A stretch of 24,633 nucleotides of DNA. Origin: a virus. Taxonomy: Duplodnaviria > Heunggongvirae > Uroviricota > Caudoviricetes. This document shows, piece by piece, positions 9,808 through 13,983 of this stretch. Every line of letters starts with the position of its first letter. Position 1 is the first letter of the stretch. Location of the stretch: IMG/VR virus record IMGVR_UViG_3300014205_000193; one strand, written 5' to 3'. The translations under genes and the position numbers were made by a program. Below the pieces are notes generated by a model. The model searched no databases. It was not told where the DNA came from and saw nothing but the letters and a program-made list of their open reading frames with translations.

Positions 9808-9984
9808 TTAAGAGGCTAGTGCGAGCTGTGTCTCAGGTTGCTCAGACATCACTGGCAACAGAGACGCTACAACCATCACTTCACCACAAAAGCACTGCAT
9901 GGACCTGGTGTAAGCAGGAACCGCTTCGCCAATGTAACCGCCGCACGATGTGCAGTAGACCGAATGTGTGTGCTTGTTAGCCAT
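9808..9984 (-). CDS. 58-aa zinc-ribbon protein (CTSC...CFC), not in ORF track
   Basis: MANKHTHSVYCTSCGGYIGEAVPAYTRSMQCFCGEVMVVASLLPVMSEQPETQLALAS; fills the gap downstream of a promoter, in operon orientation. Confidence 0.75.
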   Translation of the reverse strand: MANKHTHSVYCTSCGGYIGEAVPAYTRSMQCFCGEVMVVASLLPVMSEQPETQLALAS

Positions 9985-10037
9985 AATAAATCCGTTGTCA
10001 AAGTCCTTAACCTAAAATTAGTACCCTAGTCCACCTT

Positions 10038-10066
10038 AATCTATTCTAAATGTTTTATAAATGCAA
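10038..10066 (-). promoter_or_regulatory. sigma70-type promoter TTGCAT-N17-TAGATT
   Basis: Same -10 as the 5076 promoter and an identical AAAAATAATTGTTG 14-mer running into the -35. Confidence 0.7.
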
Positions 10067-10100
10067 CAATTATTTTTATAGCACAAATAAGTATATGTTG

Positions 10101-10358
10101 CTATGCTATCTTTTTCCCCAGCTCTACTGCTTCTGATAATTCTGGTTTGCTGAGATCTATTTGATAATCAGCATGCTTATTTTTATTCCATTCGCGTATA
10201 CCCAGCAATAACAATTTGTTTAGTAACTCGTACAGTTTTGCATGCTTTCTTGTCGCAACCACGCAGATACTATTATGCAGCGGGTCTACCATCTGGAAAG
10301 TGAATCTCGGAAGTGTGTGATTCTCTTTGCTATCGGTAGTTATCTTTTTCTTACTCAT
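10101..10358 (-). CDS. Small DNA-binding protein, ribbon-helix-helix-like
   Basis: AGGAGG RBS; PRFTFQM (strand), DPLHNSICVVATRKH (helix), KLYELLNKLLLLGIREW (helix). Confidence 0.55.
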   Translation of the reverse strand: MSKKKITTDSKENHTLPRFTFQMVDPLHNSICVVATRKHAKLYELLNKLLLLGIREWNKNKHADYQIDLSKPELSEAVELGKKIA

Positions 10359-10379
10359 ACATTATCCTCCTAGCAGTAG

Positions 10380-10391
10380 TTTATAATACAC
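10380..10391 (-). promoter_or_regulatory. 12-mer GTGTATTATAAA, copy 1
   Basis: Ends 22 nt before ATG 10358; identical copy at 11683-11694. Confidence 0.45.
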
Positions 10392-10394
10392 ATA

Positions 10395-10423
10395 AAAATA
10401 ATTAAATGAATAATTAAATACAA
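10395..10423 (-). promoter_or_regulatory. sigma70-type promoter TTGTAT-N17-TATTTT
   Basis: Preceded by TTG and a T-tract like the other promoters; AT-rich context lowers specificity. Confidence 0.5.
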
Positions 10424-10451
10424 CAAAAAAATTAAAATATAAAATAGACCA

Positions 10452-11012
10452 CTATATCTTACGTTTATAACTATAACGTAATACAATGCCTAGTAGTTCT
10501 CGATAACGACATATCAGAGGGTGTGACTCCTGTTCGAGCCTATGCAGCATCCTAGAGAATACTTGTGATACCGTGTTAGGTTTGATATTGAGCTGATGAC
10601 TAATATCCAGTAACGTTTTACGTTTTTCATAAAGCACCAATACACGATATTGCTTATTAGTCAATATATCTTTAAGAAAGTTATCAATATTATTATCCCG
10701 CTTAAATCTCAATAGAGCACCGACATGCTGCAATACTTTTAATACTCGCTTCTTACGATGGGTAATTGCTGAAGTAGATAATTTTATTCCGTGATGGAAT
10801 TCAAAGAATACTCGATAAACCTGATTCTGTCTAGGCTTCTTAGCGTTTTTAAACATACTGACACATAGTAGCTCTTCTTTAGTGAGATGCTCTTTTACTT
10901 CGTTAAACACATCTCCAAATTCACGAGCTGCTTTATGATATTCGTTTTCGGACGTGTGTGGCGCATGTGCTACAATATCCATTCCGGCAGGAATTCGTAC
11001 TGTAGTGATCAT
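10452..11012 (-). CDS. Protein with two tandem sigma70 region-4/LuxR-like HTH modules
   Basis: HLTKEELLCV...GIKLSTSAITHRKKRVLKVL and ILTNKQYRVLVL...TLLDISHQLNIKPNTVSQVFSRMLHRL; no recognisable sigma region 2. Confidence 0.6.
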   Translation of the reverse strand: MITTVRIPAGMDIVAHAPHTSENEYHKAAREFGDVFNEVKEHLTKEELLCVSMFKNAKKPRQNQVYRVFFEFHHGIKLSTSAITHRKKRVLKVLQHVGALLRFKRDNNIDNFLKDILTNKQYRVLVLYEKRKTLLDISHQLNIKPNTVSQVFSRMLHRLEQESHPLICRYRELLGIVLRYSYKRKI

Positions 11013-11988: not shown

Positions 11989-12069
11989 CTATTCTTTTGA
12001 TTTTATAAATCTACCGAGTAGACAACCTAGAATAAATGTTGCTATTGCAATAAGTACAGTCTTTTTCAT
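11989..12069 (-). CDS. 26-aa single-pass membrane peptide (MKKTVLIAIATFILGCLLGRFIKSKE), not in ORF track
   Basis: AAAGGGTG upstream; fills the intergenic gap; hydrophobic core flanked by basic residues. Confidence 0.55.
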   Translation of the reverse strand: MKKTVLIAIATFILGCLLGRFIKSKE

Positions 12070-12094
12070 ATCACCCTTTGTCTGTTAATTTTAT

Positions 12095-12301
12095 TTATTT
12101 GTTAAACATTTTCTTAGTCAAGGCATCCGCACCACCACTGGCACGCACCCATGCTCGTAACATCATTTTTGGATTACTATCGGCAATTGACGCATCTAAC
12201 TCGGCATTGTGCGTAGGACACAAATTTGCCCATTCTTGCTTATTCCGGCCTATCTGAGGCATAGTGGCCTCTTCTTTGCAATCTTTCCACGTGCAGATCA
12301 T
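12095..12301 (-). CDS. Small putative Zn-binding protein (68 aa; C-x4-C ... CPTH)
   Basis: AGGAGG RBS; MICTWKDC...NLCPTH. Confidence 0.7.
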   Translation of the reverse strand: MICTWKDCKEEATMPQIGRNKQEWANLCPTHNAELDASIADSNPKMMLRAWVRASGGADALTKKMFNK

Positions 12302-12316
12302 TGCGATACCCTCCTG

Positions 12317-12685
12317 TTAGAAAAACACTGGTAGTTTTAAAACTATTGCTATCCAAACCAGATGGAGTATGTTATCTGTCACAATTATGGACCAGGGTGC
12401 CATAGGTGGTTGTGCAAACTTAGCCTGACCTTTCTTATGCATAAACCAAACCACAAGGCTTGTACGGTCCTGGATGAAGTGTTGTACACCTATAAGTACG
12501 AATTGCCACCATAATAAAGGCAGCATTACGTGCCCATCCAGGGTAGTTACAGACCCAATATAGAAAGGAAGTAAATAAGTCAGCACATGGATTATACAAA
12601 TCCAGCTTTTCTGTTTCTTACCTGCGGCCATCCAATCATTTTGAAAAATGTAGTCACCCACTAAATGTGCTAGAAACCATGTCAT
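12317..12685 (-). CDS. DUF3307-like integral membrane protein
   Basis: LAHLVGDYIFQNDWMA..K, IH...Y, HFIQD, DNILH motifs; GGAGGG RBS. Confidence 0.85.
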   Translation of the reverse strand: MTWFLAHLVGDYIFQNDWMAAGKKQKSWICIIHVLTYLLPFYIGSVTTLDGHVMLPLLWWQFVLIGVQHFIQDRTSLVVWFMHKKGQAKFAQPPMAPWSIIVTDNILHLVWIAIVLKLPVFF

Positions 12686-12709
12686 AAATTACCCTCCATT
12701 ATTATTTAA

Positions 12710-12881
12710 TGTGTTATAGGGGAAGGATCTCCGTTAGCACCTTCCGTCTTTCTCAGCGCACAGACAGGTCCAACTAGTACTGCGTCTGCACCTCGGCTTC
12801 CGCTAGCCCGAGACTCATCTTTTTTATGGATGGCTCAACTTCATTTAACCGTGCCACTTATTATCCTTCCCCTATAACACA
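12710..12881 (-). ncRNA. Structured ~172-nt non-coding RNA candidate (6S-like size) closed by a perfect 19-bp stem
   Basis: TGTGTTATAGGGGAAGGAT at 12710-12728 and its exact reverse complement at 12863-12881; inner helices UGGCAC/GUGCUA, CUCGG/CCGAG, GUGCAGAC/GUCUGUGC; occupies the largest intergenic gap. Strand inferred from flanking genes. Confidence 0.65.
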
Positions 12882-12882
12882 C

Positions 12883-13080
12883 TTACAAATGCTCTTTCGC
12901 CGACTGTATACGACGCTTAATACGTATTTCTCTTTCCAACTTGTTACAATCTGGATTCGGTATAAACACGTCCGTATGCGATAATTCCTTATCACTATTA
13001 AAGTACCAGATGGTTACTCGTTTATAATGCGCAGATATTCGGTAACCAAGGGTATATTTTGGTGTATTTTTACTGCTCAT
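12883..13080 (-). CDS. Hypothetical basic protein (65 aa)
   Basis: Overlaps the upstream stop; its own stop abuts the ncRNA stem. Confidence 0.6.
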   Translation of the reverse strand: MSSKNTPKYTLGYRISAHYKRVTIWYFNSDKELSHTDVFIPNPDCNKLEREIRIKRRIQSAKEHL

Positions 13081-13792
13081 TGACAGCCACTTCCTCTGAC
13101 AGCACCTGCAATATGCTATTTACTTCGTTAAGTTGATTTTCACAATGAAGTAGTTGACTTTGTTGTGTCGCCATATCCCGCTCGTATACTTCTAATTTGT
13201 TTTTTAATATTTGTATGCGACTTTCTATACGCTGTTCCACTTCTTCCGGCGTAATATTATCAGTAACGATCAGACTGTCTGCTAAGGTAGAGAGTTGTTT
13301 TATGGATCGTGTGGTTGAGGTACGAATAACAGCCGCAACCTCCAGTATCTTTTCTCGCAGTTCCGTGAATAATAGTGATTGCTCAAGTTCAGCAGGTGTC
13401 CTTACCTCTGATTCCACGCTTGCGTAGAAGGCCGCATCATCTTTAATACTGTTTACATATTCGTCCAACATTTCTTTATTGATAACCACATCTTTTTCAA
13501 GTAACTCCTGTTTGCGTGTGGCGTCATAGCTTTGTATGTCTTGCAGCTCTTGCTTAACAGTTATCAGGTTATTTTCAATGCTACTCTTAGCCATAGTGGC
13601 GGCTTCGTGTTGACTGCATATAAATTCTTTATATTCTTTAAGAGCCTTGACACTTACCGCGAAGAAATGGTTATCTTTATGTGAATGTACAGTTATCACA
13701 TCTACTCTGAAGGGGACTTGGTTACTGGCGGCCGTCTTTACAGCAGCCGTCATGATGAACTCAGATAAGTTTAAGGGTGGTCGTGTGTTCAT
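13070..13792 (-). CDS. Coiled-coil hypothetical protein (240 aa)
   Basis: Heptad-rich C-terminal half; ATGA-coupled to the upstream gene. Confidence 0.8.
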   Translation of the reverse strand: MNTRPPLNLSEFIMTAAVKTAASNQVPFRVDVITVHSHKDNHFFAVSVKALKEYKEFICSQHEAATMAKSSIENNLITVKQELQDIQSYDATRKQELLEKDVVINKEMLDEYVNSIKDDAAFYASVESEVRTPAELEQSLLFTELREKILEVAAVIRTSTTRSIKQLSTLADSLIVTDNITPEEVEQRIESRIQILKNKLEVYERDMATQQSQLLHCENQLNEVNSILQVLSEEVAVNEQ

Positions 13793-13983
13793 TCTTCGTC
13801 CAAGTTATGTTTAAGGTAGGTAGGATAGGGCAGTCCAGTATCTTTTGCCAATAGATTATTTATATACTGATACCATTTAACGCGCTGCGACTGTGCCTGA
13901 GCTTTAGCTCTGCTGTATATTTCCAGGTCAACCAGGATAGTGCACCGCCTAGCACGCTTATCTGCTTTTACGTTTTTTGACAC
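13789..13983 (-). CDS. Small ribbon-helix-helix (Arc/CopG-like) DNA-binding protein
   Basis: RCTILVD (strand), LEIYSRAKAQAQSQ (helix), WYQYINNLLAKD (helix); AAGGAGG RBS. Confidence 0.65.
   Translation of the reverse strand: MSKNVKADKRARRCTILVDLEIYSRAKAQAQSQRVKWYQYINNLLAKDTGLPYPTYLKHNLDEE

Follow-up and report, generated by a model that had tools for sequence, protein, structure and literature searches.

NusG/Spt5 is described as the only family of transcription regulators that is conserved in every branch of life, and its members bind the elongating multisubunit RNA polymerase through the NGN domain, specialised paralogs bringing about operon-specific antitermination (PMC7819879). Such paralogs prevent premature termination in very long operons on horizontally mobile DNA (PMC7819879, PMC7593976), plasmids and prophages are among the carriers of rfaH-like genes (PMC7593976), and in UpxY-UpxZ the NusG paralog and the product of the adjacent gene bind directly (PMC11685472). 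Jumbo phages without their own RNA polymerase are described as relying on phage sigma factors or "minimal sigma" helix-turn-helix (HTH) factors (PMC7824862). Here we analyzed the IMG/VR virus record IMGVR_UViG_3300014205_000193, a stretch of 24,633 nucleotides (nt) from a tailed phage which is called the window below, and in particular its positions 9808 to 13983, which an earlier note had described as a compact putative cluster for the takeover of host gene expression. Because of the synteny results, this module claim shrinks to a core of two overlapping genes, surrounded by lineage-specific satellites. The two genes encode the following proteins, with lengths in amino acids (aa).

11009-11662, minus strand: NusG-fold protein, annotated as an open reading frame (ORF) of 217 aa, recognised by its AlphaFold2 (AF2) model, by Foldseek and by weak PHROG and NCBIfam matches
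10452-11012, minus strand: all-helical protein of 186 aa with a C-terminal HTH of sigma-region-4/LuxR type at about residues 98-172

The window is a piece of the 236,752-bp metagenome contig ERZ27247358:k141_2474311 of the European Nucleotide Archive (ENA). The synteny was compared between the window, its nearest IMG/VR relative G001 (90,312 bp, judged 49% complete, with a tail sheath), G002 (31.8 kb, judged 18% complete), and L008 (72 kb) and L009 (20 kb), which come from a single type of phage; for the P0006 (68 kb) and P0002 (30 kb) contigs the comparison used gene tables. Single-protein scans of IMG/VR with the HTH protein and with PolA gave no match, and the more distant phages were reached by an alignment-based PolA scan of IMG/VR. 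The ORF map of 9808-13983 agrees with the gene list of the earlier note.

The AF2 model of the NusG-like protein (predicted local distance difference test, pLDDT, 80.8; predicted template modelling score, pTM, 0.69; residues 1-31 below pLDDT 50) consists of an NGN-like alpha/beta domain with an additional beta-hairpin insertion, a long helix and a KOW beta-barrel. The top Foldseek matches in PDB are NusG, RfaH and Spt5 (E 3e-8 to 1e-4, probability 1.0, about 170-185 columns), and nothing else in PDB matches the two-domain NGN and KOW model comparably. Among the profile collections, PHROG 6386 "transcription antiterminator" matches at E 8.8e-5, the NCBIfam nusG model (TIGR00922) at E 2.7e-4 with 20.8 bits against a cut-off of 135.7, and the UpxY model (NF033644) weakly in 7 of the 18 family members (best E 6e-4, 15.6 bits against a cut-off of 100); in Pfam nothing is significant, KOW reaching E 0.24 and the NusG NGN model giving no match. 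Judged by the curated thresholds, the protein lies outside the NusG, UpxY and RfaH families. Its membership of the NusG/Spt5 superfamily is confirmed by the predicted structure at the level of fold only, and to that extent the NusG paralog of the earlier note is borne out. The KOW domain is predicted as a beta-barrel; RfaH is marked by an autoinhibited alpha-helical KOW domain and by recruitment at an ops site. The family is narrow, with 18 metagenomic proteins that are all at least 53% identical.

The HTH protein (AF2 pLDDT 78) was classified through its C-terminal domain. The best Pfam match, GerE (PF00196; E 7.7e-5), falls with 22.7 bits just short of its cut-off of 23.5 and is matched by only 2 of the 20 family members, and Sigma70_r4 reaches E 0.015. 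The NCBIfam sigma70-ECF model (TIGR02937) matches 7 of the 20 (E 3.3e-5, 23.6 bits against a cut-off of 42.9), with an alignment confined to the sigma4 part, at model positions 105-163 of 165. A profile search of PDB places the DNA-binding domains of LiaR and VraR, of LuxR/NarL type, first (E 1.3e-3); the top rows of VIA-align are almost all sigma4 domains (Z 7.9-7.2, root-mean-square deviation (rmsd) 1.6-3.5 over 56-69 residues), and the structural look-alikes in the atlas are viral Sigma70_r4/GerE clusters. The likeness of both domains together to ECF sigma factors is weak (TM 0.41; Z 7.0 with rmsd 5.5), and a Foldseek search with the whole model returned nothing at E 1e-3 or better. For sigma region 2, the Sigma70_r2 model matches none of the 20 members and the NCBIfam alignment likewise covers the sigma4 part only. 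This family is narrow too (23 representatives among 1.8 billion, with no bridge to a large family). A tandem sigma4 mimic had been proposed for this gene, and of this proposal the C-terminal sigma4/LuxR-like domain is retained but the second module is unsupported: in the one test run, hhalign of the N-terminal against the C-terminal half gave a probability of 0.7% with 15 columns aligned, by which the halves are unrelated. Residues 1-100 of the family have no HTH match in Pfam or NCBIfam, and the N-terminal domain, which is helical, could be assigned to no family.

The two genes are adjacent, with overlapping stop and start, in every related contig compared, and they are the sole component of the region for which this holds. 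In the window the start of the HTH gene overlaps the stop of the NusG-like gene by ATGA, and overlaps of 1-13 nt are found in the L008, G001, G002, P0002 and P0006 contigs. Homologs of both proteins are also found on short contigs of matching size (5508, 2236 and 4295 bp), on which the pair probably co-occurs. Two complete phages, one of 94.7 kb (PolA 30% identical) and one of 88.9 kb, have neither gene.

A complex of the two proteins was predicted with an ipSAE of 0.58 against 0.25 for the best control, with the verdict "weak support". Of 80 solved complexes 58 reached the ipSAE mark, as did 2 of 110 mismatched pairs, while at or below 0.60 lie only 7 of the 80 solved complexes and both of the passing mismatches. 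The runs share at least 77% of their contacts, and the partner pLDDT is at least 82. We read this prediction as a slight lift to a moderate prior and not as evidence of binding.

Two promoter-like sites and the two copies of a repeated 12-mer lie at or near these genes.

11591-11619, minus strand: promoter-like site TTGCTT-N17-TATTTT with T-run/GTTG, within the 5' end of the NusG-like ORF as annotated
10395-10423, minus strand: promoter-like site TTGTAT-N17-TATTTT with T-run/GTTG, upstream of the gene for an 85-aa protein
11683-11694, minus strand: copy 1 of the 12-mer GTGTATTATAAA, 21 nt upstream of the ATG at which the NusG-like gene is annotated to start
10380-10391, minus strand: copy 2 of the same 12-mer, between the promoter-like site and the Shine-Dalgarno (SD) sequence of the 85-aa gene

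A generic sigma70 scan gave no enrichment (9 found against 14.1 expected), but the specific pattern at the two sites is conserved in the relatives. The first site recurs at this position in L008 and L009, and in G001 such a site lies 23 nt ahead of the SD sequence and ATG of the NusG-like gene, so that in three lineages the conserved coding part is preceded by a promoter-like site. Both L008 and L009 have a homolog of the second site, and G001 shows its T-run/GTTG motif. The motif TTTTTYGTTG was found 5 times against 0.22 expected, with 4 copies on the coding strand, which lie ahead of the secretion-cargo gene, the 85-aa gene and the gene for translation initiation factor IF1, and inside the 5' end of the NusG-like ORF. 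For the pattern TTGnnT-N17-TAT[GT]TT the coding strand has 3 sites where 0.26 are expected, two of them within 9808-13983, an enrichment that is overstated since the pattern was defined after the sites were seen. In L008 the coding strand has five such sites and the opposite strand none; one is at the position of IF1 and the others are ahead of the NusG-like, 79-aa, 58-aa and cargo genes. The independent support for the promoter-like sites is thus their conserved position in relatives, and from the sequence the NusG-like/HTH pair probably has its own promoter. A reading of the T-run motif as a Bacteroidetes-type -33/-7 promoter was set aside, its spacing being inconsistent by eye, and TTGnnT-N17-TATTTT was preferred.

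The annotated start of the NusG-like ORF at 11662 is probably spurious, because residues 1-31 are modelled at low confidence, most of the 18 homologs begin near KIHHDL and the promoter-like site lies inside; the true start is probably at or after M22 (11599), or at an in-frame GTG at 11584. The first 22-27 or so annotated codons (11584-11662) resemble a translated promoter, with the T-run and TTGCTT-N17-TATTTT. The in-frame GTG is 6 nt past the -10-like hexamer both in the window and in L008, and the leader of the NusG-like transcript may be very short or lacking.

The copies of GTGTATTATAAA extend to an 18-mer with 16 of 18 positions identical. The 12-mer core TATTATAAA was not found at these sites in the relatives, and further exact 12-13-mer repeats are present in coding sequence within the same 4.6 kb. 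The repeat to which the earlier note drew attention is therefore real as two exact copies, but it is no more striking than other 12-13-mers of the region, and it was rejected as a regulatory motif because it has two exact copies only, is not in the relatives and has comparable repeats elsewhere in the region.

No RNA polymerase domain is present among the ORFs of the window, which confirms the earlier observation for these ORFs, and no sigma region 2 was found there either. In the 90-kb relative G001 the Pfam models for beta, beta' and sigma2 found nothing and the large ORFs have no PHROG polymerase match; the T7-type model PF00940 gave nothing there either, but it was silent in control genomes too and is uninformative. 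About 40% of the 237-kb contig, together with the 90-kb relative, has been looked at.

The explanation which we favor, and hold with moderate confidence, is that the pair forms a unit of two genes with a promoter of its own and modifies the host RNA polymerase. Each of the two folds is that of a factor of bacterial-type multisubunit RNA polymerase, and because of the folds, the coupling and the synteny, all of them observed like the conservation of the motifs, we infer that the pair acts on the host enzyme, every functional step being an extension from these data. The pair would be transcribed from its own sigma70-like promoter and translationally coupled. The NusG-like protein would load through its NGN domain on the host multisubunit RNA polymerase, and the loaded enzyme would become resistant to pausing and termination. 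Antitermination of this kind would suit very long co-directional phage gene arrays, as that of RfaH, UpxY and LoaP suits their operons. The HTH protein could provide DNA recognition as an activator of a class of phage promoters, or it could instead recruit or regulate the NusG-like factor, possibly by direct contact. Two small ribbon-helix-helix (RHH)-like paralogs in the region would probably be DNA-binding regulators of neighbouring promoters.

In a bolder form of this explanation the two proteins would act as a heterodimer. In RfaH, the NGN domain attaches to the beta' clamp helices, where sigma region 2 also binds. The pair could then be a split surrogate sigma on the host core polymerase, with the sigma4-like domain at the beta-flap and the -35 element and the NGN domain at the clamp helices; it would exclude the host sigma, target the T-run/TTGnnT promoters and afterwards be retained for antitermination. 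We consider this quite improbable, and if it were true, one two-gene unit would link the control of initiation and elongation.

Several observations weigh against an action of the pair on the host polymerase. The NusG-like protein scores far under every curated family cut-off, with Pfam NusG and KOW insignificant; all VIA-align Z values of the HTH protein are below 8, a range where helical folds match by chance, and LuxR-type response-regulator domains fit it nearly as well as sigma4; the complex prediction is just a weak pass; and the pair sits in a replication/repair block and does not head an obvious target operon. Some of these observations lead to a rival with an appreciable but clearly smaller chance, in which two independent regulators merely share an operon, the HTH protein being a LuxR/NarL-type activator or repressor and the NusG-like protein acting alone, with no complex or joint mechanism. 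The order of the PDB profile matches, GerE as the best Pfam match, the weak complex prediction and the common clustering of phage regulator genes speak for it, but the strict adjacency and the stop/start overlap persist in every lineage despite the turnover of the surrounding small genes, and both families are equally narrow in distribution. A partner other than the host enzyme, namely a phage-encoded RNA polymerase elsewhere on the genome of about 237 kb, is improbable in our estimate. With about 40% of the contig covered, and a relative judged 49% complete, such an enzyme could be the real partner, and some jumbo groups, whose genome size this phage shares, encode multisubunit RNA polymerases (PMC7824862). 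Opposed to this are the negative beta, beta' and sigma2 models (the T7-type result being uninformative), the large ORFs of the relative without a polymerase match, the sigma70 type of the promoter-like sites and the lack of sigma factors in groups with their own RNA polymerase (PMC7824862). It is slightly less probable still that the NGN-KOW protein is not a transcription factor and that its fold is used otherwise in the replication/recombination block, for example in coupling to the ribosome or to a nucleic-acid enzyme. The position between SbcCD and a flap endonuclease, a sequence too divergent to check the residues that contact RNA polymerase, and the many contexts of KOW/SH3-like barrels (lower Foldseek rows) would fit such a role, whereas NGN and KOW together match NusG, RfaH and Spt5 along about 175-180 columns, with no other comparable match, and the partner is a sigma4-type HTH protein.

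The least probable reading, to which we give very little credence, is that of the earlier note, by which the whole 4.2 kb with a 6S-like decoy, the tandem-sigma4 mimic, Zn proteins and IF1 form one host-takeover module. Its features are close together on one strand, and the structured element at 12686-12882 folds much better than shuffled sequences. The tandem sigma4 is unsupported, as given above, and the synteny check which that note had called for was run: the pair is adjacent everywhere, but the RHH-like and Zn genes are limited to certain lineages and for 11684-13792 the relatives show no clear counterpart, so that the NusG-like/HTH pair stays together while most other components are not co-conserved, an outcome which the note had named as refuting its reading. 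A co-conserved module including IF1 is contradicted by the relatives, as IF1 is missing from L008, and both RHH-like genes and the Zn ribbon from G002. In the explanation favored above, the RHH-like proteins and the four-Cys protein are lineage-specific additions, and the genes of 11684-13792, like the hairpin element, are cargo unrelated to the pair at a spot of variable insertions. The additions are as follows.

13789-13983, minus strand: RHH-like protein of 64 aa (paralog 1), Pfam CopG_antitoxin at E 0.043
10101-10358, minus strand: RHH-like protein of 85 aa (paralog 2), best PDB profile match Reg576 at E 0.25
9808-9984, minus strand: four-Cys protein of 58 aa, candidate Zn ribbon or knuckle, CxxC...CxC

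The 64-aa and 85-aa proteins are paralogs (hhalign 93.8%, E 1.8e-7, 41 columns) and their sequence pattern fits beta-alpha-alpha, so the two RHH-like proteins of the earlier note are kept as a pattern, but the RHH profile evidence is weak. The 64-aa profile gave no match in PDB, and Reg576 is an RHH-type regulator. The 64-aa gene is found in the window, L008/L009, L010 and G001 and is undetected in G002; the 85-aa gene is found in the window, L008/L009 and G001 and is absent from G002. The 58-aa gene has the same distribution as the 85-aa gene, being likewise absent from G002, and, judged from gene size, both RHH-like genes and the four-Cys gene are also in the P0002 and P0006 contigs. In the 58-aa protein C11, C14, C31 and C33 are invariant in 4 orthologs, giving two conserved Cys pairs, and this part of the proposed Zn ribbon holds, but Pfam, PHROG and further profile searches gave no family match. 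A role of this protein as a Spt4-like partner of the NGN domain was discarded, having no sequence support. At the place of the 85-aa and 58-aa genes, G002 has a 363-aa leucine-rich-repeat protein (L081:8464-9555, minus strand), whose C-terminus is, by eye, like a type IX secretion sorting domain.

The variable block upstream of the NusG-like gene contains the following features.

13070-13792, minus strand: protein of 240 aa, read as mostly coiled coil, variable between relatives
12883-13080, minus strand: ORF of 65 aa with no family, in the window only
12686-12882, minus strand: structured element, recognised by its fold, with no RNA family and absent from the relatives
12317-12685, minus strand: DUF3307 membrane protein, Pfam PF11750 at E 2.2e-8 and PHROG 2470 "membrane protein" at E 2.3e-12
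12095-12301, minus strand: Cys/His ORF of 68 aa, C-x4-C...C-x2-H, in the window only
11684-11968, minus strand: ORF of 94 aa, helical-looking sequence, in the window only

None of the five proteins of this block has a significant tblastn match in any relative or a transcription-related signal in Pfam or PHROG. At the place of the 240-aa protein, G001 and G002 have unrelated or weakly similar proteins of 182-219 aa, and L008 and P0002 have nothing; it matches a 219-aa protein of L001 at E 1.5e-5, which is at most a weak counterpart of coiled-coil type. The DUF3307 gene is found at this locus in the window only, and its product is accessory cargo. The 68-aa protein, formerly listed as a second Zn-binding protein, retains the Cys/His pattern but has no homologs in the relatives. 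In the closest relative by identity of the NusG-like protein (72%), a 66-aa gene is directly followed by the NusG-like gene, and of two TnpB-type genes in the P0006 contig one sits precisely in the variable spot upstream of its NusG-like gene. Both the absence of these five ORFs and the element from all relatives and the TnpB gene at the site count against a single module. Between the 68-aa and 94-aa genes there is an unannotated ORF of 26 codons, MKKTVLIAIATFILGCLLGRFIKSKE, at about 11989-12069 on the minus strand, with the SD-like sequence GGGTGA, and about 70 nt of this gap are about 70% identical to the gap ahead of the 58-aa gene (9985-10100).

The structured element has a perfect closing stem of 20 bp around 134 nt (inverted repeat 12701-12728 / 12863-12890), a minimum free energy of -67.3 kcal/mol with z = -5.37 against shuffles, and a predicted multibranch fold. 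The structured RNA of the earlier note is hence a real fold, but it has no Rfam family and no homologs: nothing was found in Rfam at E 10 or better on 12660-12910, 6S families included, and a search with the pattern of the terminal stem gave 0 matches in viral contigs, 0 in genome contigs and 6 in metagenomes, the last being unrelated chance matches by alignment. With no homologs in these three collections and none in the relatives, the 6S-like decoy is unsupported. The TnpB gene at this site in a relative had suggested a miniature inverted-repeat transposable element or a remnant of TnpB omega-RNA, and these were rejected, as neither copies nor a target-site duplication were found. At E 1 or better Rfam gave on 9000-14500 nothing but a weak hammerhead match (type III, 11827-11869, minus strand, inside the 94-aa gene; E 0.084, 24.3 bits against a gathering threshold of 48.5), which is probably due to chance; an exact direct repeat of 14 nt (11770-11783 / 11863-11876) adjoins it.

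The minus strand carries every gene from 5.5 kb to the end of the window. The order is RecA-like ATPase, DnaX clamp loader, a 389-aa protein, a UDG-PolA fusion, IF1, a Mre11/SbcD-like phosphoesterase, a SbcC-like ATPase, the region under study, a flap endonuclease and a protein carrying a C-terminal sorting domain for type IX secretion, so that the region is flanked by SbcCD and the flap endonuclease. The initiation factor was located as follows.

17697-17912, minus strand: translation initiation factor IF1, Pfam E 5e-21

IF1 is thus close by, as had been stated. The window, G001 and G002 all have it, and an unrelated gene of about 260 aa takes its place in the P0002 contig and in L008 (L008:4928-5701), where it sits behind the same promoter-like site. 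PolA is a protein of about 1300 aa with an intein and a LAGLIDADG endonuclease in L008 (L008:898-4809) and in the P0006 contig, and of 831 aa without an intein in the window. A 111-aa protein of unknown family (13968-14303, minus strand) overlaps the SbcC stop, is kept in 4 of the 4 relatives with DNA, and is better conserved than most genes of 9808-13983.

GenBank phages gave 0 DNA matches and PolA identities of at most 28%. The source is probably a large uncultured myophage of the jumbo class, the tail sheath in G001 making a myovirus likely. Strong SD sequences of GGAGG type are present ahead of many genes at 5500-24600, the promoter-like sites are of -35/-10 type, and the type IX secretion sorting-domain cargo protein is at 6991-8139. 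Classical Bacteroidia make little use of SD sequences and have -33/-7 promoters. As SD sequences and -35/-10 sites coexist here with type IX sorting-domain cargo, the host may be a lineage of the Fibrobacteres-Chlorobi-Bacteroidetes (FCB) group other than classical Bacteroidia.

NusG paralogs have so far been known as cellular or plasmid-borne activators of long acquired operons; the rfaH-like prophage genes (PMC7593976) and the PHROG family of phage "antiterminators" are already known, and our literature search turned up no account of a NusG paralog from a phage that is coupled with a protein of sigma4 type. The pair would be a compact and testable system for the recruitment of NusG paralogs, and it could show how a large phage, possibly without its own RNA polymerase, sustains the processivity of the host polymerase for tens of kilobases. 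Equally important is the correction by which most of the 4.2-kb cluster is variable cargo and the 6S-like idea is unsupported: the element resembles 6S RNA in its size of about 170-200 nt and its long closing stem, and differs from it in the Rfam result, in the multibranch fold instead of a rod with a central bubble, and in its absence from the relatives.

With RfaH, UpxY, LoaP, TaA and ActX the NusG-like protein shares the NGN and KOW fold and a mobile genome with very long operons, and to NusG and UpxY it has weak sequence similarity that stays far under the curated cut-offs. It differs from RfaH-type paralogs by the beta-hairpin insertion of the NGN domain and by its place inside the replication block of a large phage of lytic type, and no ops-like recruitment site has been identified, no search for one having been made. 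The immediate neighbour gene recalls UpxY-UpxZ of the Bacteroides capsule operons, the neighbour being here translationally coupled and a complex weakly predicted. The phage neighbour is, however, a sigma4/LuxR-type HTH protein with no UpxZ-named family among its best NCBIfam matches, and UpxZ inhibits non-cognate UpxYs, whereas no such hierarchy is evident in the phage. The sigma and "minimal sigma" factors of jumbo phages, with the logic of T4 gp55/gp33, are similar in that a small sigma-region-4-like HTH protein occurs where no RNA polymerase has been seen so far (PMC7824862), and the present HTH protein differs from them in having no detected sigma region 2 and in being paired with a NusG-fold protein. 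Lambda N and Q, P23-45 gp39 and other phage antiterminators are alike in the proposed outcome, a host polymerase that on phage DNA withstands pausing and termination (PMC3351154, PMC7819879), but their folds are unrelated, and in the present case the NusG scaffold would be supplied by the phage itself, where those proteins exploit that of the host.

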